64,000 nucleotides of DNA from Nibricoccus sp. (lineage in GTDB: Bacteria; Verrucomicrobiota; Verrucomicrobiia; Opitutales; Opitutaceae): positions 2,496,001 through 2,560,000 of the forward strand of contig JASGHG010000001.1 in NCBI GenBank assembly GCA_047602425.1. Reading direction: 5' to 3'. Shown piece after piece: positions 1 to 27,042 of this stretch. The notes below the pieces were generated by a model that was not told the origin of the DNA, ran no database searches, and was given only the letters and a program-made list of their open reading frames with translations. The translations under genes and the position numbers were made by a program. Numbering within the stretch: the stretch's first letter is position 1; each line of letters starts with the position of its first letter.

Positions 1-2312
1 GGCGTGGCGCGCTGAGCCGGACCTTGCGCACCTCCTGTGCAAATGGTTCGGCGATGGGATCGAGCAGGCGCGAATGGAAAGCATGCGCATTTTTCACCGG
101 GCGGAAAATAATTTCCCGCGCGCCGAGCAGTTTTTGAAATTCGGTCATCTCGGGCACGGGCCCGGCGACCACGCAAAGTTTCGGGCCGTTGATCAGGGAG
201 ATGGAAAGCGAAGGGCTCAGCAGGGGCAGTAGTTCCTTTTCCGGCAGCATGACCGCAAGCATCATGCCCTGAGGCAATTCGTTCACCAATTTGGCCCGCA
301 CGACGACAAGCTTCAACGCGTCTTCAAGGGAGAACACCCCGGCGAGGCACGCTGCGACATACTCGCCCATGCTGTGACCCACGATGCGGTCGGGAACGAG
401 TCCCCAATCGAGCCACAACCGCGCGAGCGCATACTCCAGCGTGAATAAAGCCGGATGGCAATTGACGGTATCGTTCAGTTTTTGCGTGGCGGGATCGAGT
501 GGTTCGTCGGCCGTCTTCCCGAGCATCCGCTTCAGATCGATGCCGCGCGGTTTGGCCGGCTCGTTTTTGGCCCGGTCTTTTGGATAGAGAAGATCGCGGA
601 CGTCGAGGCCGAGGAGTGGATGAAGAATTTGCGCGCACCGGTCGATCTCCCGGCGGAATACTTCATACTTTTCATAGAGGCCCTGGCCCATGCCAACGTA
701 ATGATCGCCTACGCCAGGCAGGAGAAAGATCACCGGCGCTGCGCCTTTTTCGGGCACGATGCCGGACAATTGTTTTTTGGCATCAGGAGCGCGAAGCGAG
801 GTGGCGATTTCGGGAGCGGTTTGCCCCACCGCAATACGCCGGTGCGAATAGAATTTCCGACCGGCATGCAATGTGTGCGCGATGTCCGAGAGCGCGGGAA
901 CGTCGGGTTGGGAAAGAAAATTGGTGAATTCGCCGGACATCGTCTCTAGCGCCGGCGCCGATTTCGCGGAGAACGTGAGCAAATACGGACCGCCTGTCTT
1001 CGGCGACGGTGCGACCGCAGGCGCTTCCTCAAGGACGAGGTGAGCGTTGGTGCCTCCCATGCCCGTCGACATGATGCCTGCCCTCAACGGCGTATTATTG
1101 CGTGAAGTCCAGGGAGCGACTCTGTTGTTCACGAAAAATGGCGTGGTGCTAAAATCGATTTCCGGATTCGGCTTGGTATAATGAAGCGTTGGCGGGATCG
1201 AACGGTTTTTGAGCGCCAGCACCGTCTTGATCAAACCTGCCATTCCAGCGGCGGCATCGAGGTGGCCGACGTTGGTTTTCACCGAACCGAGGGCGCAAAA
1301 GGAATTTTTTTGCGTGAAATTCCGGAAAGCCTTGGTCAAGGCGAGCACTTCGATCGGGTCGCCCACCGGCGTGCCGGATCCATGCGCTTCCAGGTAGGAA
1401 ATAGTATCGGCATCGACGCCGGCATTGGCAATGGCTTCGACGACCACGTCCGCCTGCCCGTTGACGCTGGGTGTGGTATAGCCCGCTTTGGCCGAGCCAT
1501 CGTTGTTGACGGTCCGAGCCCTTGATCACTGCGTGGATATGGTCGCCTTGCGCGAGCGCGTCGGCGAGGCGTTTTAACACGACGACGCCCGCGCCGCTGC
1601 CAAAAACAGTGCCATTAGCACCGGCATCGAACGCGCGCACATGGCCATCCGGTGAGACCACACCGCCGCCATCGTAGATATAACCAGTCCGATGGGGCAC
1701 ACGAACCGACACGGCGCCAGCGAGGGCAAGGTCGGTTTCTTCGTTCAACAGACTTTGCCGGGCGAGATGAATGGCGACCAGCGAGGTCGAACATGCCGTC
1801 TGCACGGTCATGCCCGGCCCGCGCAGGCCGAGTTTGTACGAGATGCGTGTGCCGAGGAAGTCCTTGTCATTGACGATCAGCGTCGGGATGTAGTCTTCGG
1901 CAAAGCGGTCGTTCAGGCCGCTGTTGGCGAAGTAAGTGTTCATCGCCGAACCAACATAAACACCTACGCGGCCGGGAAAGCGGTCCGGATCGCAGCCTGC
2001 GTCCTCGATCGCGCTGTAGGCGACTTCAAGGAGAATGCGGTGCTGCGGATCCATGGCGCTGGCTTCGCCCGGCGAATAGCCGAAGAACGTGGCATCGAAG
2101 GCCTCGGGCGCATCGAGGACGGGCGCGGCCTTCACGAAATCGGAACGGGCCAGCAACTTTGGCGAAACTCCCGAGGCGAGAATTTCCTCGTCGGTGAGAC
2201 GGGCGATGGACTCGACGCCTCCGACGAGATTCTGCCAAAATTCGGTTGGATTTTTTGCGCCCGGAAAGCGGCAGGCCATGCCTACAATCGCGATGTCAAA
2301 TTCGTTGTCCAT
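1..2312 (-). pseudogene. Type I PKS (hybrid-type KS, then AT; continues beyond left edge), interrupted by a 1-nt insertion near 1513 (true pseudogene or sequencing error)
   Basis: ATG at 2312 (MDNEFDIAIVGMACRFPGA), 4 nt after the stop of the upstream A-domain gene. KS motifs are MDPQHR and VQTACSTS. After AVIKGS the KS continues in another frame: VNNDGSAKAG...EAHGSGT...KTNVGHL...GMGGTNAHLVLEE. AT motifs GHSMG (~365-379) and HAFHS (~71-85) follow in that same frame. Confidence 0.9.
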
Positions 2313-2316: not shown

Positions 2317-3933
2317 TCAGGCGGTCTTGGACCGTAGGATTGGTTCGGGGAGGGCCTTGCGATCGGCCTTGCCATTGGCGTTTGTCGGAATTTCGGCGAT
2401 CTTCTCGAAGTGATCGGGCACCATGTGCGCGGGCAGATAACGATGCAGGTGCTGCTTGAGGGCTTCGGGATCGATCTCCTGTTTGCAGACGAGGTAGGCG
2501 ACGATGAGGATGATGCTCTCGGAATATTTTTTCACCGTGACGACGCAGTCTGCGATGCCCGGGAATTTTTGGATCGTATTTTCGATCTCGCCCAGTTCGA
2601 TGCGCAGACCGCGGATCTTCACCTGATGATCTTCCCGGCCGAGATATTCGATATTGCCGTCGGGCAGCCAGCGCGCGATGTCGCCGGTGCGATAAATGCG
2701 TTCGCCGGGAACCGCCGGGCTTTCGGTGAAACGTTCGCGGGTCAATTCGGGATTGTTTAAATAACCACGCGCCAGACCCACGCCGGCGAGGCACAATTCG
2801 CCAGGCTCGCCGATTGGGGCCTGCTCGCCATCCTTGATGATGTAAGTGCGGATATTTTGAATGGGCCGGCCGATGGGAATGCGATCGAAATCGCCCTGCG
2901 TCGGGCAATCGAAATAGGTGACGTCGACCGTGGCCTCGGTTGGACCATAGAGATTGATTAGTTGTGCGCCGACATTGCGATGGACGTTGTCATTGAATTT
3001 TCGGACGTGGGCGGGGCTGAGCGCTTCGCCGCTGGCGAAGATCCGGCGGAGCGTGGGGAGCGCCGTTTTCACCTTTTCCGGACGGCCGTCGAGATACTCG
3101 AGGAAAACGTTCAACATCGACGGTACGAAATGCATTACGCTCACGCGGTGTTTTTTGACAGTTTCCACGAGGGCCTGGGGCATCCGTTCGCCGCGTGGCA
3201 TCAACATGCAGACAGCCGAACCTTCGAGTGCCCACCAAAAGAGTTCCCACACGGAAACATCGAAACAGAACGAAGTTTTCTGCAAAAGGACGTCGCGACT
3301 GTCGATGGGATAGGCTTTCTGCATCCACTTGAGCCGGTTCACCACCGAATGGTGTTCGATCATTACGCCCTTGGGCCGGCCGGTGGACCCGGACGTGTAG
3401 ATGACGTACGCGAGATCGGTGGGGCGGTTGACCAAGGCCGGATTGGTGCCGGGGAAATTGTAGGTTTCGACCTGTTCGAGATTGACGGTGGGAACGCCGG
3501 CGGGCGCCTTGCCGGCGGTGGCGCCGTGAACGAGCAACAGGTTCACACCGGCGTTCTGCAAAACGTAACTGATGCGTTCCACCGGATCCTCGGGGGACAG
3601 CGGAAGGTACGCTCCGCCGGCTTTGATGATGCCGAAGATCCCAATGATCATCGCGAACGAACGTTCAACCATGATGCCGACGATCTGGCCTGGCTGCACG
3701 CCACGGCTTCGCAGCAGGTGAGCCACCTGGTTAGCCCGTTCGTTTAACTGGGAATAACTCAAAACCGGCGTGCCCCAAAATTTGTCGTGGTCGCACAGCA
3801 CCGCGGGTTGCTGGGGATGGCGAAGCACTTGTTCCTCGATCAACTCCTGCAACGTGACGTTGTTTTGGTATTCGCAGGCAGTGCGATTGAAAGAGGCGAT
3901 CTTTTCGAGATCGGTTTCAGTCGAGATGGACAT
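2317..3933 (-). CDS. Stand-alone amino acid adenylation domain protein, predicted L-serine specific
   Basis: Core motifs YTSGSTGRPKG, NLYGPTE, YRTGD and NGKADR. The binding-pocket residues read DVWHFSLVDK. Start reassigned to MSISTETD (3933) because the longer ORF overlaps the acyl-CoA dehydrogenase. Confidence 0.92.
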   Translation of the reverse strand: MSISTETDLEKIASFNRTACEYQNNVTLQELIEEQVLRHPQQPAVLCDHDKFWGTPVLSYSQLNERANQVAHLLRSRGVQPGQIVGIMVERSFAMIIGIFGIIKAGGAYLPLSPEDPVERISYVLQNAGVNLLLVHGATAGKAPAGVPTVNLEQVETYNFPGTNPALVNRPTDLAYVIYTSGSTGRPKGVMIEHHSVVNRLKWMQKAYPIDSRDVLLQKTSFCFDVSVWELFWWALEGSAVCMLMPRGERMPQALVETVKKHRVSVMHFVPSMLNVFLEYLDGRPEKVKTALPTLRRIFASGEALSPAHVRKFNDNVHRNVGAQLINLYGPTEATVDVTYFDCPTQGDFDRIPIGRPIQNIRTYIIKDGEQAPIGEPGELCLAGVGLARGYLNNPELTRERFTESPAVPGERIYRTGDIARWLPDGNIEYLGREDHQVKIRGLRIELGEIENTIQKFPGIADCVVTVKKYSESIILIVAYLVCKQEIDPEALKQHLHRYLPAHMVPDHFEKIAEIPTNANGKADRKALPEPILRSKTA

Positions 3934-3991
3934 GGGCAATGCGAAGATAGCTAGATTCCGGCCAATGTGCGACTTGGATGGATTTTTTTTC

Positions 3992-5182
3992 TCAGGCTCC
4001 GGCGTTTGCGGGTGATGAAGTTCGTTCGTGGCGCTGGCGGCGCAGCGCTTCGGCCACCACGCCTTTCCCCAGAATGTATTCGTGGACTTGGGTGGTGCCT
4101 TCGATGATTTCCATGATTTTCGAGCCGCGGTAAAAACGGGCGACGGGCGACGCCTCATGGCAACCGGAAGCGCCGCGGATTTGCACAGCGTCCGAGGACG
4201 CCTGAACCACGGCGCGCGAAGTGAAGTATTTGGCGAAGAATGCGCGGTTAAACGCGTCGGGCAGGCGATCGTCTTCCGCGCGGCACGCACTCCAACAGAG
4301 GAGATTGGCCGCTTCGAGATCCGTGGCCATTTTTGCCAGGAGCGATTGGATCATGCCGTAGTCGCCAACGCGCTGGCCGCCGACTTTGCGTGCGACGGCG
4401 TGATCGGCGCTTTCTTCCACGCAGCCGCGCAACAAACCCAAGGCCGAGCAAGCCGTGCTGAGCCGCCCATATTGAAGTCCTATTGGGGCGACGTGCGAAA
4501 AAGCGAACCCTGGTTTGGCGACGATGTTGGCCGCGGGGATTTGAACGTCATTGAAGCGAAGCAATCCCAAGCCAGCGGCGCGGAAACCCATGAGATCCTT
4601 GATTGGCTCGATTTCGAAACCGGGACTTTCGCGGGGCACGATGCAGGCGATTGGTTTGCCTTCGAGTTTGCCAAAAACCAGAAACACGCCGGCCATCTGC
4701 GAGCAGGTGATCCATTTTTTTTCTCCGCGAAGGATCAATCCATCGGATGTCCCGCTGCGGCGGTATTCAGTGGTCATCGCTTGCAGATCGCTGCCGATGC
4801 CAGGCTCGGTCAGAGCGAACGCAGCAATCATTTCGCCCTTGGCGAGTTTGGGCAGCCAGCGTGAACGCTGCTCGGACGTGCCCCATTTCAGCACGGCCAT
4901 GGAAAACATGGCTTGAACAGTCACGATGCCGGTGAAGGCGGAATCGCTCCGACCCAAGGCTTCGTTGAGCAGGCCAAAGGTGACCGCGTCCCAACCCAAA
5001 CCGCCAAATTCCGTTGGAATAGTGGCGCCGAGCCAGCCTGTCGCGCCGAGCTCGGCGATGGCGGCTTCGGGAATCTTCTGCGCACGATCCCATTCACCGG
5101 CAAACGGCGCCACTTTGCTGGAGGCAAAAGCCTGAAATTCGGCATGCCTCCGGCTCTGTTCTGCGGAGAGAAAGGTGTTCAT
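3992..5182 (-). CDS. Acyl-CoA/acyl-ACP dehydrogenase (FkbI/ZmaI-like)
   Basis: FALTEPGIGSD, GEKKWIT, AVQIRGASG and EIIEGTTQV motifs; adjacent to an ACP and a 3-hydroxyacyl dehydrogenase. Confidence 0.92.
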   Translation of the reverse strand: MNTFLSAEQSRRHAEFQAFASSKVAPFAGEWDRAQKIPEAAIAELGATGWLGATIPTEFGGLGWDAVTFGLLNEALGRSDSAFTGIVTVQAMFSMAVLKWGTSEQRSRWLPKLAKGEMIAAFALTEPGIGSDLQAMTTEYRRSGTSDGLILRGEKKWITCSQMAGVFLVFGKLEGKPIACIVPRESPGFEIEPIKDLMGFRAAGLGLLRFNDVQIPAANIVAKPGFAFSHVAPIGLQYGRLSTACSALGLLRGCVEESADHAVARKVGGQRVGDYGMIQSLLAKMATDLEAANLLCWSACRAEDDRLPDAFNRAFFAKYFTSRAVVQASSDAVQIRGASGCHEASPVARFYRGSKIMEIIEGTTQVHEYILGKGVVAEALRRQRHERTSSPANAGA

Positions 5183-5221
5183 GTTTGGCGCGGTTGAATG
5201 GTTTTGGTTGGCGGACGGGAC

Positions 5222-5476
5222 TTACCCGGCCTTTTTCCTGGCCACGAAGGCGGCGGTGGCGCTGACCGACTTGAAGTTTTCGATTTCGAGATCGTCCATG
5301 CCGATTTCGATTTCGAAGGTGCGCTCGACGAAGGTCATCAATTGGACGGCGAAGAGCGAATTGACGATGCCGGTGTCGAAGAGATTTTCGTCATCACCCA
5401 AGGCGTCGATGTTGATCGAGCTGTTGATGAAATTGCGGACGGTTTCTTTGATGTGTTTCGGATCAAGGGTGCTCAT
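5222..5476 (-). CDS. Discrete acyl carrier protein (FkbJ/ZmaH-like)
   Basis: 84 aa and acidic; NLFDTGIVNSLFAVQL phosphopantetheine motif typical of extender-unit ACPs. Confidence 0.92.
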   Translation of the reverse strand: MSTLDPKHIKETVRNFINSSINIDALGDDENLFDTGIVNSLFAVQLMTFVERTFEIEIGMDDLEIENFKSVSATAAFVARKKAG

Positions 5477-5494
5477 GTTAGGTTTCGCGATAGG

Positions 5495-6361
5495 TTAGCC
5501 TTGTGAACCAGGGTAGACGTAGAACCCACGTCCGCTTTTGCGTCCGCAATGGCCGGCATCGACCATCTTCCGGAGGAGGGGGCAGCACCGGAATTTCGGA
5601 TCGTGGAATGAGTCGTAAAGCACGTCAAGCGACCGCATGACCGTGTCGAGGCCGATGAGATCGGCCGTTTCCAATGGTCCCATTTTATGGCCAAAGCATT
5701 TTTTGAAAATGGCATCGATCTGTGCGGCGGTGGCCAGTCCATCCTGGAAAACCCAGGCGGCCTCATTCATGAAAAGATGCGAAATCCGGTTGGAAACAAA
5801 ACCGGGCAAATCGCCCACCACGATGGCTTCCTTTTGCAGCTGCGAAAAGAGCTGGCTGACCACGGAGATGGTTTCGTCGGACGTGTGTTCGCCGCGGATG
5901 ACTTCGACGGTCGGCATCATGTGCACCGGATTCATGAAATGCATGCCGACGACCTTTTTCGGTCGTTGGGTAATGCCCGCAATTCGAGTGACGGAGATGC
6001 ACGAAGTATTTGCGCCAAAGCAAACGCCGGCCGGAACGATTTTGTCGATTTTCTCGTAGATCGGTTTTTTGACGGTCCAGTCCTCGGTCGCGTTCTCGAC
6101 GACAAACTCCGCCTTCGAAAGATCCTCGAGGCTGGTCGTAAACGTAATGCGGGACAACGTCTCGTCACGCGTGAGCTTGGGAGCGCCTTTCTTCAGCAGC
6201 GGAGCGAACCGGACCGTTTGCAGAATATGGGCGCGAGCCGATTCCAATGCCTTGTCGGATATGTCAACCGCGATGGCGTGAATGCCGTGCAGCACGAGGT
6301 CGACAACCACGCCGGAGCCGATGTTTCCCACGCCAATTACGCCGACGGTTTTCAAAGTCAT
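5495..6361 (-). CDS. 3-hydroxyacyl-CoA/ACP dehydrogenase (FkbK/ZmaG-like)
   Basis: GVIGVGNIG Rossmann motif, GMHFMNP, PGFVSNR and MGPLETADLIGLD. Confidence 0.93.
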   Translation of the reverse strand: MTLKTVGVIGVGNIGSGVVVDLVLHGIHAIAVDISDKALESARAHILQTVRFAPLLKKGAPKLTRDETLSRITFTTSLEDLSKAEFVVENATEDWTVKKPIYEKIDKIVPAGVCFGANTSCISVTRIAGITQRPKKVVGMHFMNPVHMMPTVEVIRGEHTSDETISVVSQLFSQLQKEAIVVGDLPGFVSNRISHLFMNEAAWVFQDGLATAAQIDAIFKKCFGHKMGPLETADLIGLDTVMRSLDVLYDSFHDPKFRCCPLLRKMVDAGHCGRKSGRGFYVYPGSQG

Positions 6362-6406: not shown

Positions 6407-9400
6407 TTAATCGCGCTTGCGCAGGCGTTGCTTGCGGCGGGCGCCCCGTTCCATGGCATCGCTGGCGGCGCTTGCCTCGGTCTTTGACGGCTCCAATTTT
6501 TCCGCCAGAAGGCGCACGGTCGGGCTCTCGAAAAGGCCCACGATCGAAACCTGATGCTTAAGCTCCCGGCGGATGGCGGCGACTACTTGCACCGCTTTGA
6601 GCGACGTGCCGCCGGCTTCGAAGAAATTGTCGGTGGGTTTTAGGTGAGGATTGCCAATCGCGCGACGCCAGATGCTGAGCAGTTTGTCTTCAAGACTGGC
6701 AGCTGCATCGGTGCCGATTGCCGGCTCGGCGAAGCCGGACGCGTGCAGACGCGCTGTTTCCATGGCCGAACGGATCTTGGCGACCGAATCCAAAGTCGTG
6801 GCGATTTCAACGAGACGGGCTTCCGCTCCGAAGCCGCGTGTATGCGTCGCTTTGGCGGAAACTGGCCGATTAGCGATGGATTGGGATTCGGTAGTTTCGG
6901 AGCTGCCTGAGGGTTTATACCGCAGCGAAATGAGTTCCTCGGCGGAGAAACGATAAATAGTTGAGCCGGATTTTTCTTGGGCAGAAGCAGCACGGAGGGA
7001 CTCGACGAAATCCCGCGCAGGCTGGTTCTTTTCCGTAGTCTGGAAGGGAAGTTCGACAAACTCGCAACCCCGAGCGCGCGCCTCGGCGCCAACGCGGGCG
7101 AGAATCCCGTGCTCGACGCCGCGACCCAGCACTCGACAACTCAGGAGGAAGGTGTCGACCGAGCATACGTTGCCCGCGATGGAAAAAAGCGCCAAGCCGA
7201 CCATGCCATAATCGCCAAAGCGATCCTGCACGTTTACGGCGAGGCAGCCATTCGCGGGATTTTCCGAAAAACGTTCGATGTCAGCCGCTGAGCGGCGTTT
7301 GGTCGTGAAATTGAACTGGTTGGTGCGAAGCGTAAGCTGGGAAACGCGATCGAAATGTTCCGCCATTGGCTTGAAGATGGAAATCTCCAAGTGAAGTCCC
7401 TCGATGAAGTCTTTGAGGGTCGACACTTGGTCGCGGTATTTTTCGCGTTCTGCGTTTTCCCGCATTCTGTGGGTTCGGGTAAGATCCTCGGAAGTCGTCC
7501 GGAGATGGTCAAACGCCCAAGTGTGATCCAGGAACGCAGGGATTTCGGCGGGATTGGCCGGAAGCGGAAGCGTAAGGACGGCTGGCACGCTGGCCTGCAC
7601 TTCAGCGCATTCAACCGGGTTGTCGTCCACGAAAATAAAACTGTCCAAGCCCAGTCCGAGTTCCTGGGCGAGCGAACGAAGATTTTCCGACTTGGGCGAC
7701 CAGTTGATGCGCGTCGCGACGAGATGTTCCCGCCGCAGTTTCATGTCGGGATTTCGGTCAAAAACGCTCCAGACGTCCGCCTCCGAGTTTTTACTGCAAA
7801 GGCACAAAAGCATACCCGCCTCCATTTGCCGGAGCATGAACTCCTGGAGCGCTCGATGAGCGACGGTCACTTTCACTCCGAGGGCACCTTCCTCGCCGCA
7901 TGCCCCCTGCCAGAGCGTGTTGTCGCAATCCAAAACAATGACCTTGTACGGAGAGCGCTGAAGCGCGGAGATCGTTCTAACGAGGGCGGTGCCGATCGAA
8001 GCAAAACCTTCGGCGGTATAGGGAACATGGCCGGCGGCGTCCGCGTGCGGATCGTGAAGGTCCGTTACCGGATAACGTTCAGCGATTGCGGTGGAGCTGA
8101 GGGTATGGATGTTTGAAAATCCACGGACGCGGTCGATTAGTTCGGTTTCGATTTCGCGGAGGAACTGGCCGGAATCGGAGAAGCCGGAAGCCAATGGATT
8201 CGTCGGGCAAAAACACAGGATCGTGGGCGTGCTCGAAGAACGCGTGTAGGCATCCAGCGCCTGAATAAACTGATCGGCGGTTTTTTTGACCTCAGCTTTA
8301 GAAGCTGCAAAAGGTTCGGCTTCGGTGGCGCATGTCTCGTTGCGACTGGCGCGGGTTGCGTAGACGTTAAAAAGACCGGAGCCGGTCAGAAGATTCTCCT
8401 CTTCGACCGCGCAGTTAAAACCCTGGGAGATTAAAATCGACCGCACTTCATCGACCGCTTTTTGTGTCCGGTCGTGCACTTCAATCACGATCTGGCCGAT
8501 CAGCGGCCAATGGGTTTTTTCGATGCCGCGTAAAATCTCAAGTTCGCATTTTTCAGCGTCGATTTTAAGCAGGTCGATCCGGCTGAGCTTATTGTCGCGG
8601 ATAATATCCGAAACGGACAGCAGGGGGCAGTCGAACACCTGGCGGTCGAGTCGGCCGGTCATCAACTCGTCGACGTAGACATCGGTTGAAGGCTCGGACG
8701 AACCGAGCTCGGTGCGAACCATGTTGGCCACGACCGCTTGAATTGCCTGACGATCTTCGTCGGCGTTCGAGTGGAAACTCGAAAATACGGAAGATTTCTC
8801 GTAGAAAGTGAGAGAGGCTGAACCGCGTTTTTCGGAAACGCCCAGGTTGAACGGCTGGAGGCGTTCGCCGTAGGCGGAGCAATTTGCCTGAAGCGCCTTG
8901 AAGGCTACAGGGCTCGGTTCGTAGGCAAAGACGCGGGCTTGCGGCGCTCGGCTGCGCACAAAAAGCGAAAAGAGGCCGATGTTGGCCCCGATGTCCACCA
9001 CCGTGGCGTCTTCGGGTATTTGAATGCCATGACGTAAGTAGACACGGTCTTCAAAAATTTCTTTGTAAACGTACTCGGTCTCGTGCCGGTTGAGATGAGC
9101 GACTTCCAAGCCATTGGCCAGGGTATGCCGATTCAATCCAGCAAAGGCATTGGTGGTTGTGACTGGATCGAGTTTGGACGCGGCGGACTCGCTGCCAGAG
9201 GCCCAGTCGTTTAAGTTCAGCAGGATGACGTTGAAACCATTTTGGTTTCGCCGGAGCGCGCTTTCCGGACTGAGGAGTTCTTGAAAAACCTGGTTATAGG
9301 GCGCAAACGTGGTCTTTAGTGGACGTCCAAGGCGGAAGCCCCAGAACGTGAGCACCTCCTCGACCGGGTCAGCGGTGAAGGTCGCGGCGACGACAAGGTC

Positions 9401-10294
9401 GGTTTTCGATGGTTCGGCGGGTTGTTCTGACCGGGTTTGCCCCAGATAGGTGAAATGCACGCCTGAAAGTTTCAGATGGCAGCGGCCATGGTCATCGAAG
9501 ACTTCAAGATCGCCGGAGTGCAGTTCGCCGACTGCTTTTCCCGACTGGCGGAGGCGCGCTCTAACCCACACGCTACCGCTAAAAGCGAGATCGAAGATTT
9601 CCAACTTCTCCATTCCCCGGAGAATGAATGTGCTGCCGCCAGCGATCGAAAATGAGGCCAGCAGCTGCGCGACGCCATCGAGCAAGATGGGATGCAACTG
9701 GTGGATTTGACCGGGTTTGGCGATCGGCATGGCGAGTTGGCCGAGAGCTTCAGGGCCGTTTCGCCAGACTTTTTGTACGATCTGAAATTCAGGACCGTAC
9801 TGATTTCCATTTTTCGCCAACTGCTCGTAGTAGCCGGTTTGATCGGTGTGGTATTCGGATTTTTCCGTCGGCGACGGTGCAGGGCATTGGCCTGACGGGG
9901 TAGGCCAACCGGTTATTACCTCTAAACGGGCGCAGGGAGGAGGAGTTGGTGAACTCGCATCGCCGCCTTCCCGAAACGTGTAGCGAAACGAATGTTCGGT
10001 CGTGCGTTCGATACTCGCCGTGAGCAGAGTCTCGGCATCGGAGAGGATGACGGGATTGAGGAATTCGATATGCGTCAGCCTGCTGGGCATGGTGCCGAAA
10101 TGCTCGGCATGAATGCAAAGCACGGCCTCGATATAGAAAGAGCCGGGCAGAACGACCAAGTTTTGGAAACCATGATCCGTCAGATAAGGAAACGAGGCAG
10201 TTGCGATCCGGACGGTTGCCGTGGCCCCACCGGCGTCGGCCGGTTCAAATGCCACTGCTCTGCTTATGGAAGAAAATGTACCGGGTGCCTTCAA
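6407..10294 (-). CDS. Multidomain PKS dehydratase - FkbM-type methyltransferase - FkbH glyceryl transferase/phosphatase - ACP protein
   Basis: DH: LTDHGFQNLVVLPG and HPILLDGVAQ. MT: VDIGANIGLFS and LLKIDAE. FkbH: VLDCDNTLW, FVDDNPVE, RTNQFN and LLSCRVLGRGVE. ACP: FFEAGGTSL. TTG start. Confidence 0.9.
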   Translation of the reverse strand: MKAPGTFSSISRAVAFEPADAGGATATVRIATASFPYLTDHGFQNLVVLPGSFYIEAVLCIHAEHFGTMPSRLTHIEFLNPVILSDAETLLTASIERTTEHSFRYTFREGGDASSPTPPPCARLEVITGWPTPSGQCPAPSPTEKSEYHTDQTGYYEQLAKNGNQYGPEFQIVQKVWRNGPEALGQLAMPIAKPGQIHQLHPILLDGVAQLLASFSIAGGSTFILRGMEKLEIFDLAFSGSVWVRARLRQSGKAVGELHSGDLEVFDDHGRCHLKLSGVHFTYLGQTRSEQPAEPSKTDLVVAATFTADPVEEVLTFWGFRLGRPLKTTFAPYNQVFQELLSPESALRRNQNGFNVILLNLNDWASGSESAASKLDPVTTTNAFAGLNRHTLANGLEVAHLNRHETEYVYKEIFEDRVYLRHGIQIPEDATVVDIGANIGLFSLFVRSRAPQARVFAYEPSPVAFKALQANCSAYGERLQPFNLGVSEKRGSASLTFYEKSSVFSSFHSNADEDRQAIQAVVANMVRTELGSSEPSTDVYVDELMTGRLDRQVFDCPLLSVSDIIRDNKLSRIDLLKIDAEKCELEILRGIEKTHWPLIGQIVIEVHDRTQKAVDEVRSILISQGFNCAVEEENLLTGSGLFNVYATRASRNETCATEAEPFAASKAEVKKTADQFIQALDAYTRSSSTPTILCFCPTNPLASGFSDSGQFLREIETELIDRVRGFSNIHTLSSTAIAERYPVTDLHDPHADAAGHVPYTAEGFASIGTALVRTISALQRSPYKVIVLDCDNTLWQGACGEEGALGVKVTVAHRALQEFMLRQMEAGMLLCLCSKNSEADVWSVFDRNPDMKLRREHLVATRINWSPKSENLRSLAQELGLGLDSFIFVDDNPVECAEVQASVPAVLTLPLPANPAEIPAFLDHTWAFDHLRTTSEDLTRTHRMRENAEREKYRDQVSTLKDFIEGLHLEISIFKPMAEHFDRVSQLTLRTNQFNFTTKRRSAADIERFSENPANGCLAVNVQDRFGDYGMVGLALFSIAGNVCSVDTFLLSCRVLGRGVEHGILARVGAEARARGCEFVELPFQTTEKNQPARDFVESLRAASAQEKSGSTIYRFSAEELISLRYKPSGSSETTESQSIANRPVSAKATHTRGFGAEARLVEIATTLDSVAKIRSAMETARLHASGFAEPAIGTDAAASLEDKLLSIWRRAIGNPHLKPTDNFFEAGGTSLKAVQVVAAIRRELKHQVSIVGLFESPTVRLLAEKLEPSKTEASAASDAMERGARRKQRLRKRD

Positions 10295-10690: not shown

Positions 10691-12922
10691 CTAGGTAGCG
10701 GAACGGTCGGTTTTCTGCGGCTTGAAGCGAGGAATGGCCGTCATGGTCAGGCGGTCAACGACGTCGAGATAAACGTCTTTCATCGTTTCCCACGAATTCG
10801 CCGTGGCATAGGCAAAGCCCGCGGCGGACAACTGCTCCTTAAAAGCGGGGTCTTTGATCAACTGGCGGACTCGTCGGGCGAAATCTTCGGAGTCGCCGGA
10901 GGTGAAGAACGCCGCCACGGAGTCATTGAAATACAGGCTGTCGATCCGTGTACGCGAAATGACGACGGGCAGTTTTTGCGACATGAACTCCATGATTTTG
11001 GTGCTGTAGGCTTGGTCGCCAAAACCCTCGGCTCGTTTGGGCACGATGCCGATGTCGGCATTGGCCATGATGCCGGGGATTTCCTCCAGCACCACGCCGG
11101 GGAGGAAGCGCACGTTTTTCTCCAAGCCGAGCGAGCGTGCCAGTTCCTGCAAATTCGGGAGCGTGGGGCCGTTGCCGTAGATATGAAGCTCGAGGTTTGG
11201 AAATTCCCCCACGAGCACTTTCATCGCATTGACCGCAATATCCAGACCTTGGTGATAATTTAACGAACCAGGATAAAGGAGGATAATGCGGTTGTCGTCG
11301 CGCGTGCGCGTTTTTGGCGCGAAAAGCTCCAGGTCGACATTGTTGACCATGGCGGTGAGTTTTTCCTTGTGGGCCGAGCGGCTGCTCAGCGTGCCTTTCC
11401 AGATGTGATTGGCGACAATGACATGGTCGGCAAAACCGCAGGAGAGCTTTTCGATCAATCGCAACCCTGTGGAAAGGATCGAGCCGTGCTTTACCGAGAA
11501 TTTCGATTCGTAGAGCTCGGGCACGATATCGTGGATATCGAGGATGATTTTCGCATTGCCCGACTTGAGCCTCGCGCCGGCGAAAACGAGAAAATCAGGA
11601 ATGTTGTGAACGTGGAGCAGATTGCAGCCGTTGGGAAAATTTTTCGGACCCAAGTGGACGAAGGCCTTCAAAAAGAAAGCACTGAGGCGCCAGGCATAAG
11701 CCCATTTGCCGGACTCTCTCGTTTCGCGCGCCTGAAGGCGGAAGACTTCGACCCCGTTGAGGGTTTCCCATTTCCGCGAGCGGACTTGTTCGGGTTTTCC
11801 AAGCGAAAATATTTTCACGCGGTCACCGCGTTTGGCGAGAGTTTCGGCGTAGCGGCGGACGCGATTGTCGGAGTTGTAGAAGCTGTACGTCAGCATGGCC
11901 ACCGAGCGCGGCGGCCGAGCCTGGCGGGGCTTGAACGGCGTGCAAAAAGCGGCGACCTCGCGGGGAAGCGCCGCCCAGTAACGGCCTTTGTATTCGTCCC
12001 GCACATGCGCGAGAAAATCGCGATAGAGCTGAACCGAGAACTCGTAGGTGCTGGGTTTCTCGCCCGGCATCGCCATGTAGTCGGGATGAGTGTCGAGCAG
12101 GGCCATCGCGCGTTTGTCGACCAGCCACCGGAGCTTGTTGCGCCAGATATCGATGTTTTTCTGTTTTAGAACTACGAAATAGTTGTAGTCCTGCACCAGC
12201 GTGTACGGCAGTTCGATATAGCCGTCACGTAGAGGCTTGGGACGGGAGGGCGATCCGTTCGCTGGGCCGCCTCGAAGGGCGTCCGCTTCCGGATTCGGTC
12301 GGTTGACCCAAAACGGGAAAACTGTCTGCGCTCCGTCGGGTTGGGGCTCGAAAGGATCCACATCGAACGTCGAGGCATCGTACGCGATGTCGAGATCGTG
12401 CAGCCAGTCGAGCTTGTGCAACATGAAGCCGGCGCGAAAACCAGTGGCGCCCCATTTTTTCAGCCACTGGTTAATGGCCGTGGCATCCCGGCGAAATCCT
12501 TCCCGACTCCGAAACAAGGTTCCGTCGTGGCGCAGGTCGTGCACGCCCACTTCAAAACCATTTTGATGCAGCCAATTTATCAGTTCATCTGGAACCGTGT
12601 AATCACCTGTGGGGATGAAGTTAAAACAGGAGCGGAATCCGTACTCCATTTCAATTTCCGCCAGCTGGCGGCAACGCCGCAGTCCCTTTGGACCTTCCAC
12701 GTCGTGGGTGAGCACGAAGGAAAAGTCTTTGCCATCCGGCCAGCCCGGCCAGTTTTCAGGAGCCTTGCCCGTGTCTTCGTAAATGGGCCAGTAGGCGGTG
12801 CACTTCCTTTTGATGATGGCCGCACGCATCCGCCGAAGTGCCAACCGCAGGCGGGGAGGGAGGATGGGCTTCACCGCGTAGTAAGCGTGGTTGAGGAGCA
12901 TGACGGGAGCGTGCAGATGCAT
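10691..12922 (-). CDS. Fusion of a polysaccharide deacetylase-like (NodB/CE4-like) domain and a GT4 glycosyltransferase
   Basis: N half: LTHDVE, EVGVHD, GFRAG, YDAS and ELPYTL. C half: DNRVRRYAETL, LDIHDIVPE and TKIMEFM (GT-B fold). Confidence 0.85.
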   Translation of the reverse strand: MHLHAPVMLLNHAYYAVKPILPPRLRLALRRMRAAIIKRKCTAYWPIYEDTGKAPENWPGWPDGKDFSFVLTHDVEGPKGLRRCRQLAEIEMEYGFRSCFNFIPTGDYTVPDELINWLHQNGFEVGVHDLRHDGTLFRSREGFRRDATAINQWLKKWGATGFRAGFMLHKLDWLHDLDIAYDASTFDVDPFEPQPDGAQTVFPFWVNRPNPEADALRGGPANGSPSRPKPLRDGYIELPYTLVQDYNYFVVLKQKNIDIWRNKLRWLVDKRAMALLDTHPDYMAMPGEKPSTYEFSVQLYRDFLAHVRDEYKGRYWAALPREVAAFCTPFKPRQARPPRSVAMLTYSFYNSDNRVRRYAETLAKRGDRVKIFSLGKPEQVRSRKWETLNGVEVFRLQARETRESGKWAYAWRLSAFFLKAFVHLGPKNFPNGCNLLHVHNIPDFLVFAGARLKSGNAKIILDIHDIVPELYESKFSVKHGSILSTGLRLIEKLSCGFADHVIVANHIWKGTLSSRSAHKEKLTAMVNNVDLELFAPKTRTRDDNRIILLYPGSLNYHQGLDIAVNAMKVLVGEFPNLELHIYGNGPTLPNLQELARSLGLEKNVRFLPGVVLEEIPGIMANADIGIVPKRAEGFGDQAYSTKIMEFMSQKLPVVISRTRIDSLYFNDSVAAFFTSGDSEDFARRVRQLIKDPAFKEQLSAAGFAYATANSWETMKDVYLDVVDRLTMTAIPRFKPQKTDRSAT

Positions 12923-18447: not shown

Positions 18448-21400
18448 TTAGCGAATCTTGTCTCCTTCCAGCGGTTGCGCAAACTGGTCCTTCACATTGT
18501 TGAGATTTTCCAACGAGGCGTTCCACCATTTCGATGCCAGCAAGGTTTCGATCGTCTTCGGGTTGAAGCGGTATCGCAGGACCTTGGCCGGGTAACCACC
18601 GACAATGGCATAGGGAGGCACATCTTCCACAATAACGCTCCCGGCGGCGATGAAAGCTCCGTCCCCGATCTTTTTTGTAGGATAGAGGATGGTTGCGTTA
18701 TTTCCGATAAACACGTCGTTGCCAATTTCCACTTTCACCCGGTTGAGTTCGTAGCCTTTGGCGAAGCCGAAGGCGGGATGGTAGAAAATCGCGTTGGTCG
18801 AGATGGTGTTTCTGGGGTGGTCGGCATTTTGGATGAACGCCGTGGGAGACACCGATGAATATCTGCCGATCGTCGTCTTCTCGCGCATCCGGTCAACGTC
18901 GAAGCATCCGCAAGTGTAATCGCCAATCTGGATGCCGAACATTTTGGCGTAAAGCTTCCGCAAGGTTACCGTGTAGTATTCGCCATTCTCGAATTTGAGG
19001 ATCAATTTTTGGGCGAACGCGCGAACGCGGCGGCTTCCGTTCATGAACAGCGGGGCCAGGACCCATCGGCAGAACGCGGACTCTTTCATCCGGGAGCCGG
19101 CTGTCGGCCCTGTTTGCGATGTAGTTGTTTTTTGGAGACCGAGCAGCGTTGCGACAATTTCCGGATTGGCCTCGGGCAGGTTTAGGCTCGGAGCTGGGCT
19201 TGGTGCCGCGGGCTTGTCGATGACATGCGCGGATTGGCCGGACGTCGACGGCAGTAGAGTCGCGAGGCCTGCCACCGTTCGATGCCGGAAAAGCGCCACG
19301 GGCGGAAGATCGGTTCCGAAGCGATCGTTGAGGAGCGAAACGGCCCGCAATACCAGCAACGAGTGACCGCCCAAATCGAAGAAATCGTCGTGAATGCTGA
19401 TGCGTTCAACACCCAATACTTCCCTCCAAACCTGACAGACACCTTGTTCGGTTTCGTTTCTTGGGGCGACATAGGTGGTTCCGAGGTCCGGACGGTCCTG
19501 CACGGGCTTCGGAAGGGCCTTGCGGTCGACTTTTCCATTGGTAGTCAGAGGAATTTTTTCGAGCTGCACGAAGGCGGCCGGCACCATGTACTCCGGCATT
19601 TTTTTCTTCAGGTGTTCCCGAAGCTCCAGAACCGAGGGGATCACGCCGCCTGACGAAATGACGTACGCAACCAATCGCTGGTCGCCGGGAACATCTTCGC
19701 GCGCGATGACGACCGCTTCGCGAATCGCAGGATGCTGACAGAGAACGGACTCAATTTCACCCAGTTCGACGCGGAAGCCGCGGATTTTTACCTGTTGATC
19801 GATACGGCCGAGATACTCGATGTCGCGGCCGGGAAGGAAGCGAGCGAGATCGCCCGTTCGATAAAGTCGCGAACCGGGTTTGTTCGTGAGATGATCGGGA
19901 ATGAATCGGGCGTCGGTGAGGTCCTGCCGATTGAGGTAACCGCGCGCAAGGCCGGCACCGCCGACGTACATTTCTCCCGGAACACCGATGGGCAACGGCT
20001 GTTTTTGCGGATCGAGGATATATACTTGAAGATCCGGAATCGGCACGCCGATCACACTGCCAGAGGTCAAATCGTCTTTCGACAACGGCCTGTACGTGAC
20101 ATGCACCGTCGTTTCGGTGATGCCATACATATTGACCAAACGCGGCTGGCTGTCGCCATGCCGGTCGTACCACGGGCGCAAACTTTGCATTTCCAAAGCC
20201 TCTCCCCCGAAAACCACATAACGCAGCGCCAGTTTCTTCTGCCCGACCGATTCCTCCGCATGGATGAGCTGGCGGAATGCCGATGGCGTTTGGTTCAGGA
20301 CGGTCACCTGTTCCTTGGCGAGGAGTTCGTAGAATGCCTCGGAGGAGCGGCTGACCATGAATGGCACCACAACAAGGCGGCCGCCGTAGAGCAAGGCGCC
20401 CCAGATTTCCCAAACGGAGAAATCGAAAGCCACGGAGTGGAACAGCGTCCATACGTCCGAACTATTGAACCCGTACCAATGATCGGTGGCGGAGAAGAGC
20501 CGCGTCACGTTCCGGTGGGTGAGCAGGGAACCCTTGGGTTTTCCCGTCGTGCCCGAGGTGTAAATAACGTAGGCAAGATGATCCGGATTTGTCGCGGACG
20601 GCTGGTTTTCGTTGTCGGCGTCGGTCAGTTTTTCCTGGAGCAGCTGGTCTACGCAGAGCACACGGGCGGATGTTTCGGGAAGATCCTTGAGCAGGGACGA
20701 CTGCGTGAGCAGAATGGGAGCCTTGGCATCGGAAAGCATGAACGCCAGTCGATCGGCCGGGTAGGCAAGATCGATCGGCAGGTAGGCGCCTCCCGCTTTC
20801 AAGATGGCGAGCAGGCCGATCACGAGGTTGTTGCACCGTTCAAGACACAGACCGACGAGGACATCGGGGCCGACGCCCAGTGAACGCAACTCGCGGGCGA
20901 GTCGGTTGGCCATGGCGTTGAGTTGGCGGTAGCTAAGGGTTTGGTCATCGCAGGTCAGCGCGGGCGCGTCCGGGCTCCGGCGGGCCTGCTCCTCAAAAAG
21001 GACATGGATGCAACGGTCGCTGGGATAGTCTTTTGGTGCTTCGTTCCAGTCGACCACGAGCTGCTTCCGTTCCGCGGCGGTGACGAGCGGTAGGACACCC
21101 AATTGTTTTTCCGGTCCGGCGAGCATTCCGGCGAAAATGATTTCGAGGTGCCCAAGCATTCTGCCGATGGTTCCTTCGTCATACAGACCGCCATTGTATT
21201 CGAGGCGCAGCAGCAGTTGGTTTTCGCCATAAGCCTGGAGGACGAGCGGTATGCCGACCTGTTCCTTTAGTTCTATCTGGAGTTTAGGTCCATTCGGATT
21301 CAGTTGCTGGACCGCGGTATCAAGCTGTGCATGATCGAACATCAACAGGGTGTCGAACAGCGCCTTCCGGTCTTGAATTTCGCTCCATTGCTGGATCTTG

Positions 21401-22413
21401 ACCAAAGGCGTGTGCTCGTGCTTTCGAAGTTCGAATTCGCGCGCGCGCAGGTCTTTCAACCAGGATTTTAAGGTGGCGCTGGACGAAACATTAACACGAA
21501 GCGGGAGCGTGTTTATAAAAATGCCGACAATGGAATCGGCATCGGTCACGGTGGACCGCCGGCAGGCCCGGGTGATTCCGAAAACGACGTCTTCTTCGCC
21601 ACTATAGCGGCTGATGAGCAAGGCCCAGGCCGCTTGTACGAGCGTGCCGAGGGTGACCCCTTGGGCTGCGGCAAAGGCCTTCAGTTCGGTCGTCAACGAT
21701 TCTGACAGGCGCGTCTCGCTCGCGGCTGGAATAAACTCGTTACTGGCTGCTGCCGGACGCAGCGTGCGCAGATCGGTGGGGACGGAGAATCCTTTTAGTT
21801 CCGCCCGCCAGAATCCTTCCGAGGCCTGCCAGTCATGGCGTCCAACCCATTCAATATATTCACGGAATGGGCGCGGAGCAGGCAGTTGAATATTTTCGTT
21901 CCGGAGCCCGGCTTTATAAAGCGTGAATACTTCATTCAGAATAATGGGGTAGGCACGTCCATCCAAAATAATATGATGAAAACTCCATATACATTTGTAA
22001 CGGTTTTCACCAAGTCGCGCGAGGGTCACTCGCATTACGGGCGCTTGGGAAAGATCGAAGCCCTGTTTGCGGTCGGTGCGGAGAAATTGTTCCAGTTCTT
22101 TGGTCTGCGCCTCTGGCGCCAGATGAATCCAGTTACGTTCGACGAAAGGCAGCGTCACTGTGGGGTGAACATCCTGGGCTGGTTCAGCCAGCTTCAGCCA
22201 ACGAAACGCTGTGCGTAAAGCTCCATGACGGACGACTACTTTTTCCCACGCCGCTTTGAAGGCCGCTGTGTTTACGGCTTCATCGATGGTTATAACGACC
22301 TGCTCAATGTTTATTCCTGAGTTGGGGCGGGACACGGTGTCAAAGAGCATGCCTTGCTGCATTGACGAAAGAGCGTAGGATTCCGCAATCGAAGTCGTGG
22401 GCGTGGATGTCAT
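18448..22413 (-). CDS. Single-module NRPS: C - A(Thr) - T - CatB/Vat-like LbH acyltransferase
   Basis: C: HHIILDG. A: YTSGTTGKPKG with pocket DFWNVGMVHK. T: FFDLGGHSLL. C-terminus: DHPRNTISTN...IGNDVFIG...IGDGAFIAAGS...DVPPYAIVGGYPAKVLRYRF...KWWN. No TE or R domain. Confidence 0.93.
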   Translation of the reverse strand: MTSTPTTSIAESYALSSMQQGMLFDTVSRPNSGINIEQVVITIDEAVNTAAFKAAWEKVVVRHGALRTAFRWLKLAEPAQDVHPTVTLPFVERNWIHLAPEAQTKELEQFLRTDRKQGFDLSQAPVMRVTLARLGENRYKCIWSFHHIILDGRAYPIILNEVFTLYKAGLRNENIQLPAPRPFREYIEWVGRHDWQASEGFWRAELKGFSVPTDLRTLRPAAASNEFIPAASETRLSESLTTELKAFAAAQGVTLGTLVQAAWALLISRYSGEEDVVFGITRACRRSTVTDADSIVGIFINTLPLRVNVSSSATLKSWLKDLRAREFELRKHEHTPLVKIQQWSEIQDRKALFDTLLMFDHAQLDTAVQQLNPNGPKLQIELKEQVGIPLVLQAYGENQLLLRLEYNGGLYDEGTIGRMLGHLEIIFAGMLAGPEKQLGVLPLVTAAERKQLVVDWNEAPKDYPSDRCIHVLFEEQARRSPDAPALTCDDQTLSYRQLNAMANRLARELRSLGVGPDVLVGLCLERCNNLVIGLLAILKAGGAYLPIDLAYPADRLAFMLSDAKAPILLTQSSLLKDLPETSARVLCVDQLLQEKLTDADNENQPSATNPDHLAYVIYTSGTTGKPKGSLLTHRNVTRLFSATDHWYGFNSSDVWTLFHSVAFDFSVWEIWGALLYGGRLVVVPFMVSRSSEAFYELLAKEQVTVLNQTPSAFRQLIHAEESVGQKKLALRYVVFGGEALEMQSLRPWYDRHGDSQPRLVNMYGITETTVHVTYRPLSKDDLTSGSVIGVPIPDLQVYILDPQKQPLPIGVPGEMYVGGAGLARGYLNRQDLTDARFIPDHLTNKPGSRLYRTGDLARFLPGRDIEYLGRIDQQVKIRGFRVELGEIESVLCQHPAIREAVVIAREDVPGDQRLVAYVISSGGVIPSVLELREHLKKKMPEYMVPAAFVQLEKIPLTTNGKVDRKALPKPVQDRPDLGTTYVAPRNETEQGVCQVWREVLGVERISIHDDFFDLGGHSLLVLRAVSLLNDRFGTDLPPVALFRHRTVAGLATLLPSTSGQSAHVIDKPAAPSPAPSLNLPEANPEIVATLLGLQKTTTSQTGPTAGSRMKESAFCRWVLAPLFMNGSRRVRAFAQKLILKFENGEYYTVTLRKLYAKMFGIQIGDYTCGCFDVDRMREKTTIGRYSSVSPTAFIQNADHPRNTISTNAIFYHPAFGFAKGYELNRVKVEIGNDVFIGNNATILYPTKKIGDGAFIAAGSVIVEDVPPYAIVGGYPAKVLRYRFNPKTIETLLASKWWNASLENLNNVKDQFAQPLEGDKIR

Positions 22414-22609: not shown

Positions 22610-24061
22610 TTATAGAGCTGCCGTCTTGGTTGCTAGGCGAGGCATAATGGCATTATAAATAACTTGGGCAACTTCAGGAAATATTATCCGTGCGATGCCC
22701 ACCGCGATGCCGAGTGAAGCGAGTGCGCTGACGGCGGCGCCCACGATGCCCAGGCTGGATGCAAAATAATGGGCATAACCAACGTTCAAGACTAAAATTC
22801 CCACCAGGTAAACGGTGGCGACGGAACTTTCGCGCAGGGGCACTTGTTGCTTTTGGCGGAGTCGATACAAGGAATACACTGTGGCCAAAATCTCGCCCAC
22901 AATGGCGCAAGCTGCGATTTGAGTGGGAGTCCCTTTGAGCGCGACGACGGCCAAGGCGATTGGCAGTCCGGCTGCTCGCCACAAGTTCGAATAAAATTGG
23001 TTGATCGTATCGGCACGCGCCGCGGCCGCGTTGCCCGAGGCCAGACGCAGGAAGCGGAAAGCCATCGCCGAGCCCAAAATCGCGACGAACGCCCCGGTGC
23101 CCACGTATTTTCCGCCGAAGATCAACGTGACGAGTTGTTCACCCGCGACAATCATCGGCACAAGAAATAGGCCCGCGCAGACCGCGGCAATTTGTATACA
23201 CAAACGATATTGATGTTTCAACCGCTCCAAGTCGTCTTGCAGTCTCGATAAGAGCGGCAGCATCAAAGAGCCGCTCACCTGGGAAAAGATAAACCACGGA
23301 ATACTAATCATCGAAAACGCCAGGCCGTAGCTGGCAAGCAAGTCGAGCGAGAAGACCGAACCTATAATAATCTGATCGGCTTGTTGTGAGCCGAATGTTA
23401 TAAAGCCGGTCAGCAGGAGGGGCCACCCGAACGCCAGCATACTTTTAATGTAATCGCGCTGCCAGGCCCACACATAGGGTCGGGTTGCGCAAAGAAAGGT
23501 GATGATCGTGCCGGTGGCGGCCTTCGTGAGCATGAGAATTACAATCACACGAAAATCTCCCAACCAGTGCGCCAAGGGCCAGGCGGCCGCCGTAATCAAC
23601 AATTGGGGAACGACGTCGGATAAGATCAACGGCAGATATTCGAGATGACGCTGACGCCGCGACACATCCATGTGGCCCAATCCTTGGCACATGGGCACCG
23701 AGGCCAGAAGGGCAAACGCCCACCAAGTGCCGGGCACTCCGAGAAATTTTGCGATGGGATAACTCAAGGCCACGAGCATCAATGCACTGCACGAGCCACC
23801 GATAAATTGGAGCGCCTGCGCGGTGCCGAGAAACGCCGGTTCTTCACCTTTCTTGGACTGCACGACTTGCAGCCCAAAACACATATTCCCGCTTAACTCG
23901 AGGAGGGTGATGGCCATGCTAAATGCCGCTGCCAAACCGAAGTCCGCTTTGCCCAAGGTTCTGGCTAAAATCACATTGCGCACGAACGAGAGAAAATATC
24001 CTGCAATTCGCCCGGTGAGCAGAATCATTGTGCCTTGGAGCAGTGAGTTCGATTTGCGCAT
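22610..24061 (-). CDS. wzx: Wzx-type oligosaccharide flippase
   Basis: Highly hydrophobic, 483 aa, N-terminal ILARTLGKADFG, located in a polysaccharide locus. Confidence 0.88.
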   Translation of the reverse strand: MRKSNSLLQGTMILLTGRIAGYFLSFVRNVILARTLGKADFGLAAAFSMAITLLELSGNMCFGLQVVQSKKGEEPAFLGTAQALQFIGGSCSALMLVALSYPIAKFLGVPGTWWAFALLASVPMCQGLGHMDVSRRQRHLEYLPLILSDVVPQLLITAAAWPLAHWLGDFRVIVILMLTKAATGTIITFLCATRPYVWAWQRDYIKSMLAFGWPLLLTGFITFGSQQADQIIIGSVFSLDLLASYGLAFSMISIPWFIFSQVSGSLMLPLLSRLQDDLERLKHQYRLCIQIAAVCAGLFLVPMIVAGEQLVTLIFGGKYVGTGAFVAILGSAMAFRFLRLASGNAAAARADTINQFYSNLWRAAGLPIALAVVALKGTPTQIAACAIVGEILATVYSLYRLRQKQQVPLRESSVATVYLVGILVLNVGYAHYFASSLGIVGAAVSALASLGIAVGIARIIFPEVAQVIYNAIMPRLATKTAAL

Positions 24062-27022: not shown

Positions 27023-27042
27023 CAGGGACGTTTTAGTCGCGC

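Follow-up and report, generated by a model that had tools for sequence, protein, structure and literature searches.

What would a rare polyketide extender unit be made for in the middle of a polysaccharide locus? This question is raised by the genome of Nibricoccus sp. (assembly GCA_047602425.1; 5.16 Mb in one contig, JASGHG010000001.1, with a completeness score of 99.97%), in which a set of four genes resembling those for aminomalonyl-acyl carrier protein (aminomalonyl-ACP) lies directly upstream of a polyketide synthase (PKS). The window analyzed here is the whole 64,000-nucleotide stretch from position 2,496,001 to 2,560,000 of that contig. We propose, with moderate confidence, that an intact zmaG-H-I-J-like set serves a one-module polyketide/peptide assembly line situated in an exopolysaccharide (EPS) locus, and that the acyl-peptide formed is destined for a surface glycan.

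A zwittermicin-type cassette

An initial annotation had listed a 3-hydroxyacyl dehydrogenase, a discrete ACP, an acyl-CoA dehydrogenase (ACAD), and a stand-alone adenylation (A) domain between positions 2317 and 6361, and all four genes are indeed present, intact, and encoded on the minus strand (Table 1). Their open reading frames (ORFs) are stop-free and closely packed, and the other genes of the assembly-line block, the PKS excepted, are likewise open. The A-domain ORF as called would encode 657 amino acids and overlap the ACAD gene; the start codon chosen for the table gives the shorter protein. The first dehydrogenase shares intact GxGxxG, GMHFMNP, and NTS motifs with the reference enzymes and is predicted to perform, with NAD, the first oxidation of seryl-ACP, with the ACAD as the FAD enzyme predicted for the second. 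When the pocket of the A domain was extracted by alignment (nine residues were read from the alignment and the terminal K was taken as invariant), it was DVWHFSLVDK, one position away from the DVWHFSLIDK of both ZmaJ and the first A domain of ClbH, in agreement with the serine code assigned to it previously. The adjacency to a PKS also holds, as the PKS start codon at 2312 comes immediately after the A-domain stop.

Table 1. Positions of the features in window coordinates
Feature	Position	Strand	Details
KS-AT-KR-ACP PKS, start	1..2312	-	Pfam; runs beyond the window start to G000:C1 ~2493660
Single extra base splitting the KS into two frames	~1513 (approximate)	-	DNA alignment with 4 relatives; split tblastn match
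Stand-alone Ser-type A domain, ZmaJ-like	2317..3933	-	538 aa, ATG 3933 to stop 2317
Acyl-CoA (acyl-ACP) dehydrogenase, ZmaI-like	3992..5182	-	396 aa
Discrete ACP, ZmaH/ClbE-like	5222..5476	-	84 aa, PF00550, GIVNSL motif
3-Hydroxyacyl dehydrogenase, ZmaG/ClbD-like	5495..6361	-	288 aa, PF02737 + PF00725
DH-FkbM (O-methyltransferase)-FkbH-ACP starter-loading protein	6407..10294	-	1,295 aa; TIGR01686, TIGR01444, PF14765, PF00550
GT4 glycosyltransferase with N-terminal domain	10691..12922	-	Directly upstream of the loader
Second NRPS, C-A-PCP-LbH acyltransferase (left-handed beta-helix)	18448..22413	-	A pocket Thr-like, DFWNVGMVHK
Wzy-dependent polysaccharide genes	22610..41790	-	Flippase, polymerase, GT2s, FemAB/GNAT, deacetylases, Wzc, aminosugar pathway, priming transferase

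Comparison with the two reference pathways favored the zwittermicin enzymes. Identities were 58% to ZmaG, 39% to ZmaH, 45% to ZmaI, and 47% to ZmaJ, compared with 48% to ClbD, 29% to ClbE, 38% to ClbF, and 46% to the first A domain of ClbH. The zwittermicin record names ZmaJ alone, and the remaining Zma labels are assigned here from gene order. For the discrete ACP the margin was small (70.5 bits for ZmaH versus 57.4 for ClbE and 54.3 for ZmaD, the last at 34% identity), while the ACAD was 36% identical to ZmaE and had its best plasmid matches in a Brevibacillus record and in the Bacillus zwittermicin cluster. The gene order, dehydrogenase-ACP-ACAD-A-NRPS/PKS (NRPS, nonribosomal peptide synthetase), is also that of zmaG-H-I-J-K in the Bacillus cluster.

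A scan of a species-genome collection, in which the best 80 of 381 ACAD relatives were retained, defined a family of the 40 closest loci (L016-L053, L059, and L063), all with at least 55% ACAD identity except L059. In a FastTree phylogeny of 80 ACADs, which does not include frameshifted relatives lacking an ORF of 300 aa, the window ACAD belonged to a ZmaI clade of 44 rows (SH-like support of 99), 42 of them labelled as flanked by a Ser-type A domain; the other two were L052, which is truncated, and L072, which has a long branch and an FkbH neighbor. ZmaE, the FkbH-flanked ACADs, ClbF on a separate branch, and L081 fell outside this clade. Within the family, every readable neighboring A domain (32 of 32, with 8 unreadable) carried the Ser pocket, and dehydrogenase, ACP, Ser-type A domain, loader, KS, and AT occurred together in 30 of the 40 loci. 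Incomplete loci were mostly at contig or locus ends; L043 has neither loader nor KS. A point against the proposal is that L030 has no first dehydrogenase in its locus.

At the level of sequence, then, the window holds each component of a Zma/Clb-type cassette, namely, a Ser-type A domain, a ZmaH/ClbE-type ACP, an NAD dehydrogenase, and a ZmaI-type ACAD. The roles of ZmaG, ZmaH, ZmaI, and ZmaJ in aminomalonyl-ACP synthesis are set out in the available text of PMC6395733 and PMC4207774. Because of the zmaGHIJK colinearity, the preference of every protein for its aminomalonyl-branch counterpart, the Ser pocket, and the position in the ACAD clade, the genes present are very probably those for aminomalonyl-ACP. 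The earlier view that this rare extender is made here is therefore upheld as far as the genes go, and its use in this strain is left in doubt by a frameshift in the KS (see below).

The likeness to zwittermicin A of the Bacillus cereus group extends to the same four enzyme types in the same order, followed by a PKS-containing gene. The window differs in having no ZmaF trans-AT, no second ACP and ACAD, and no free FkbH (ZmaD/E/N), and in having a single cis-AT module, a fused methoxyacrylyl-type loader, and an EPS/exosortase setting. The likeness to colibactin of the Escherichia coli pks island is limited to the precursor enzymes ClbD/E/F and the Ser pocket shared with the first A domain of ClbH, which is a multidomain NRPS; its trans-AT ClbG has no counterpart in the window, and no pointer to a colibactin-like product was seen. 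Searches of the PDB returned generic folds only.

The hosts of the family are Verrucomicrobiota, Acidobacteriota, Beta- and Gammaproteobacteria, Gemmatimonadota, Ignavibacteriota, and one Bacteroidetes metagenome-assembled genome (MAG), the closest ACAD relative (82%) being in an Opitutaceae MAG. The distribution is patchy, with the cassette in none of the four same-genus genomes, and it is rare close to the host: among 60 relatives no ACAD exceeded 40% identity, the 3 matches being FkbH flanked. No compositional sign of a recent foreign insert was seen, as the GC content over window positions 1 to 10000 is 0.56 to 0.60 versus 0.574 genome-wide.

An assembly line within a polysaccharide locus

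Beyond the window start, the PKS is followed by an NRPS with the domain order C-A-PCP-C-A-PCP-TE (TE, thioesterase) and then by a phosphopantetheinyl transferase (PPTase). The two NRPS pockets, DVWHISLVDK and DILQLGMIWK, are Ser type and Gly type, respectively; pockets are assigned here to Gly, Ala, Pro, and Thr by the known specificity codes. In the pathway that we propose, the A domain would load L-Ser onto the discrete ACP, and the NAD and then the FAD dehydrogenase would oxidize seryl-ACP to aminomalonyl-ACP, while the DH-MT-FkbH-ACP loader would convert 1,3-bisphosphoglycerate into 2-methoxyacrylyl-ACP. The cis-AT would transfer aminomalonyl to the ACP of the PKS, whose KS and KR would form a 2-amino-3-hydroxy-4-methoxypent-4-enoyl unit, as expected from methoxyacrylyl, aminomalonyl, and a ketoreduction; the NRPS would append Ser and then Gly, and the TE, with its Cys nucleophile, would release the chain onto an acceptor, for which an amino group or a hydroxyl of a glycan repeat unit is the likeliest candidate. 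The likely product is thus 2-amino-3-hydroxy-4-methoxypent-4-enoyl-Ser-Gly, possibly transferred to a glycan.

As assembled, the PKS gene contains a frameshift, so this strain may lack an active line. Its KS keeps the Cys-His-His motifs, and the extra base that splits it is absent from all four aligned relatives, which speaks against a working line here. Were the frameshift real, the line would be dead and the cassette intermediate would have no user, a point orthogonal to the chemistry of the pathway and one that we rate at somewhat less than even. The extra base lies outside any homopolymer run in a nearly complete genome; against this, when 160 orthologous ORFs of G004, a genome of the same genus, were compared, at most 4 matched the present genome (G000) in two frames, some of them perhaps as N-terminal artefacts, so that an assembly indel is plausible, and the remaining genes of the block are all open.

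The cassette lies inside one EPS/exosortase locus. The polysaccharide genes within the window include an aminosugar pathway (Gfo, hexapeptide acetyltransferase, and DegT) and end with the priming transferase (41029-41790); past the window start, after the PPTase gene, come those for a NadE-like protein, an ACP, an acyl ligase, an amidotransferase, an exosortase, PrsT, PrsK, and PrsR. The three Prs proteins score above cut-off and the exosortase is nearest XrtC (286.5 against a cut-off of 300), while the ligase, amidotransferase, and FemAB-like genes score below cut-off. PrsT, PrsK, PrsR, and an XrtC-like exosortase are shared with PEP-CTERM/exosortase-associated EPS loci, for which no hybrid PKS-NRPS cargo was found in the literature searched. 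The initial annotation had called the cassette unexpected next to a capsule locus, and such a locus is present; this wording understated the relationship, as the cassette sits within the locus and relatives repeatedly show a similar association. Wza or a priming transferase was found within 50 kb on the same contig in 14 of 37 family genomes but beside only 5 of 76 control ACADs, and in 11 of 20 on contigs of at least 100 kb compared with 4 of 34 controls located at least 60 kb into their contig. The controls were other ACAD matches of the same genomes, with same-place duplicates, pieces of cassette ACADs, and unlisted matches left out, and the Fisher p value of 0.001 for this enrichment is overstated since related loci are not independent. 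The wider flanks of the relatives contain flippases, polymerases, aminosugar genes, and exosortases.

The end of the line is also found in related loci that have other cargo. A TE search matched 25 of 150 family genomes, and the context was examined in five of these, G002, G003, and G004, which belong to the genus of the window genome, and G017 and G495. The orthologous locus of G004 runs from Wzc to the exosortase in 44 kb without the cassette and has in the same slot a stand-alone A(Gly)-PCP-TE(Cys) protein with a PPTase (G004:C1:1715760-1718630; L178:3760-6630), while the NRPS or NRPS-PKS lines found there in G002, G003, G017, and G495 are different ones that terminate alike in Gly-PCP-TE(Cys). 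G003 encodes a second, stand-alone A(Gly)-PCP-TE(Cys) protein (G003:C5; L211:12710-15361), and these stand-alone proteins of G003 and G004 have no C domain and lie inside exosortase/EPS loci. Since a lone A-PCP-TE that hydrolyzed glycine would be futile, we infer that the locus supplies an acceptor onto which the TE transfers its cargo, although the stand-alone protein might instead form Gly-Gly iteratively. That the acceptor is the glycan appears to us nearly evenly balanced. More tentatively, exosortase-linked loci of soil bacteria would carry NRPS/PKS cargo lines in which a conserved Gly-PCP-TE(Cys) acts as a glycan acyltransferase, with the aminomalonyl cassette as one cargo whose chain is displayed on the EPS.

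The TE of the present line has a Cys nucleophile in the motif GYCLG, and Cys is also the nucleophile in 16 of the 24 related TEs that were readable (29 matches, 5 of them cut off). Cys-TEs are less common and are linked to the ring-forming ObiF and SulM in the available text of PMC11298585. The Cys nucleophile is common to ObiF, SulM, AB3403, and the TE of this line, whose similarity to ObiF1 is weak (E value of 4e-4); in contrast to the ring-forming enzymes, its substrate would end in a terminal Gly without a beta-nucleophile for closure, and its context is EPS.

Rather unlikely, in our estimate, is that the same biochemistry yields a small molecule that is set free (as an enol-ether amino acid, a short peptide, or a TE-closed ring) and that the EPS locus is a mere landing site of a mobile operon. 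Several points agree with it: the line terminates in a TE rather than a recognized glycan transferase, ObiF and SulM release small cyclic products (PMC11298585, available text), several copies are far from EPS markers, the distribution is patchy, and the downstream modules vary among relatives, with Gly only, Ser, an Ala-type code, an aminotransferase replacing the KR, or a TE alone. It is opposed by the sister genomes, whose EPS loci retain the Gly-PCP-TE(Cys) end even where the cargo upstream of it is different or absent, by the enrichment near EPS markers over controls, and by the scarcity of exporter-type genes, seen in 2 loci only (L047 and L052) among 94 flank ORFs scanned.

Transfer to a surface glycan, which we prefer, has its own difficulties: 8 of the 24 readable TEs have Ser in place of Cys, the Cys-TEs described in PMC11298585 (available text) give beta-lactam or beta-lactone rings, not glycan amides, for 23 of the 37 cassettes neither Wza nor a priming transferase lies within 50 kb, many of these cassettes being on short contigs, and in G063, G066, and G091 the marker is more than 120 kb away on long contigs.

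The second NRPS of the window might, alternatively, receive the product of the PKS. It needs an acyl donor because it starts with an intact C domain, the donor being possibly the PKS ACP or a second ACP/ligase pair. As an obligatory partner this NRPS was rejected, since a PCP-LbH query found no full-length orthologue in five related Verrucomicrobia/Pseudomonadota genomes; the best match was 36% over 254 aa in G061, at another place.

Homologues of the GT4 glycosyltransferase occur at the matching position in L016, L037, L038, and L041. The protein, whose N-terminal domain of 330 aa has no Pfam match, is 45 to 68% conserved in several related EPS loci. Elsewhere in the window, positions 44673 to 55314 hold a run of four or five membrane-protein paralogues, which have TPR tails and three of which carry a PMT_2 glycosyltransferase-like domain.

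Extender delivery and the starter unit

The cis-AT has the motifs PGVGDHY, GHSMG, and HAFH, with the active-site Ser, Arg, and His present and PGVGDHY replacing the GQGSQY of other ATs. A discrete AT like ZmaF or ClbG, part of both reference clusters, was found neither in the cluster nor by genome-wide tblastn with the AT domain, which concerns delivery of the extender and not its synthesis; in a tree, the cis-AT fell outside the ZmaF and ClbG branches. The discrete ZmaF is the confirmed aminomalonyl AT listed in the available part of a review. An aliphatic residue together with Asp (G[VIML]xD) in place of the usual GQGS was found in 31 of 31 family ATs, whereas a sample of 400 genomes of the phylum gave 22 other cis-ATs, none of which had it. 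Val occupies the same site in ZmaF and in three ZmaF-like ATs beside other Ser cassettes, and the N-terminal GVGDH of the window AT resembles the GVGSH of ZmaF. We consider it probable that this AT loads aminomalonyl onto the ACP of the PKS.

This assignment is weakened by several features. The ATs with the motif form one clade (41 rows, SH-like support of 100), so that the motif is a single inherited event and not independent support; GHSMG and HAFH are of the malonyl-CoA type, unlike the GYSLG and GPFH of ZmaF; the RXR site is mixed (I-F-R), whereas the available text of Park et al. gives GYSxG, a GxxH lid, and a hydrophobic RXR site for ATs that use ACP-linked extenders; and the AT of L124 has the motif with no cassette within 10 kb on either side. 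No second member of the clade was present in the 400-genome sample, in which at most five candidates were scored per genome and which served as a negative control only; a metagenome scan was seeded with words containing the motif, and being biased it was not counted as a reverse test. The L124 protein (L124:8369-13135, KS-AT-KR-ACP, on a 225-kb contig) represents an orphan or a split cluster.

An AT that loads plain malonyl-CoA, with aminomalonyl-ACP entering elsewhere, for example, by providing the acceptor amine for amide formation (a proposal made for ClbO), is improbable. The malonyl-specific ZmaK-AT has the same GHSMG and HAFH, and non-decarboxylative use of aminomalonyl is described for ClbO (bioRxiv 10.1101/530204, available text); however, the conserved Gln is lost and Asp gained across the AT clade, and KS-less AT-ACP-TE versions remain adjoining the cassette in L043 and L116.

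Returning to aminomalonyl as the extender, the neighboring gene does contain the FkbH noted in the initial annotation, not as a free enzyme but fused within a DH-FkbM-FkbH-ACP protein. The catalytic motifs of DH, methyltransferase, FkbH, and ACP are retained in all 17 full-length loaders aligned, so the domain order and the intact motifs of a 2-methoxyacrylyl loading module are both found here. Module 1 of OocJ has the order DH-MT-FkbH-ACP, and its authors thought it nonfunctional (PMC4552970, available text); the phormidolide module, equated with OocJ1, yields a 2-methoxyacrylyl starter from 1,3-bisphosphoglycerate (PMC6174933, available text). By architecture alone, the comparison made here, the oocydin and phormidolide modules have the same domain order as the window loader; they are the first modules of long trans-AT PKSs, whereas the window loader is a free protein before a single cis-AT module. 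It is fairly probable by this analogy that the loader makes a 2-methoxyacrylyl starter. The single discrete ACP and the ZmaI-type ACAD favor a starter source over a second extender route, and in L043, L116, and L117 cassette and AT are present but the upstream 4 to 10 kb covered hold no loader.

The weakest alternative, suggested earlier, is that FkbH also charges the discrete ACP with glycerate, from which the two cassette dehydrogenases would produce hydroxy- or methoxymalonyl-ACP. It draws on the FkbH and O-methyltransferase that adjoin the cassette, on ZmaG-type enzymes predicted to serve both branches (PMC6395733, available text), and on ZmaA-AT taking both extenders in vitro at high concentration (PMC4207774, available text), but is very improbable, as FkbH is 27% identical to ZmaN and fused to a DH and its own cis ACP, the free FkbH, separate discrete ACP, and ZmaE/FkbI-type ACAD of hydroxy/methoxymalonyl cassettes (ZmaD/E/G/N and FkbG-K) are missing from the cassette, which contains a single discrete ACP and a single ACAD compared with two of each in zwittermicin, a Ser A domain occurs in 38 of 40 loci, and L043, L116, and L117 have no loader nearby.

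Variants and significance

Several relatives have variant lines. KS-less or shortened-KS AT-ACP-TE proteins with a Ser-TE follow the cassette in L116:9632-12397, L043:14599-17301, and L117:8420-12313, with no loader nearby and beside exosortase or sugar-transferase genes; these lines could release or transfer aminomalonate itself. The variant L018:12807-21152 (KS-AT-ACP-aminotransferase-C-A-PCP-TE) would yield a 2,3-diamino instead of a 2-amino-3-hydroxy unit. In an Acidobacteriaceae EPS/exosortase locus, LuxE- and LuxC-like genes come directly after the cassette NRPS (L110:4471-6890), and the matching position of L106 has a carbamoyltransferase, a sulfotransferase, and a second PKS.

The four-gene route is already known: the cassette is a zwittermicin-type route, and what is new is its setting, with a cis-AT, a loader, a Cys-TE, and an EPS locus. 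The operon was not described in the literature searched on aminomalonyl clusters and ATs, FkbH loaders, exosortase or O-antigen PKS/NRPS systems, Cys-TEs, and soil phyla, which included few subscription papers and no supplements. Engineering PKSs to place such extenders is a stated aim (PMC4207774, available text), and the family, if the proposal is true, would provide a compact AT, acting in cis, that takes aminomalonyl-ACP and has a candidate signature. It would also represent a minimal line by which widespread, uncultured bacteria of soil and groundwater form a new enol-ether amino acid, and it would be evidence that TE-terminated assembly lines decorate exopolysaccharides, the stand-alone A(Gly)-PCP-TE(Cys) proteins of G003 and G004 being the simplest test case for a TE that transfers glycyl to a glycan.

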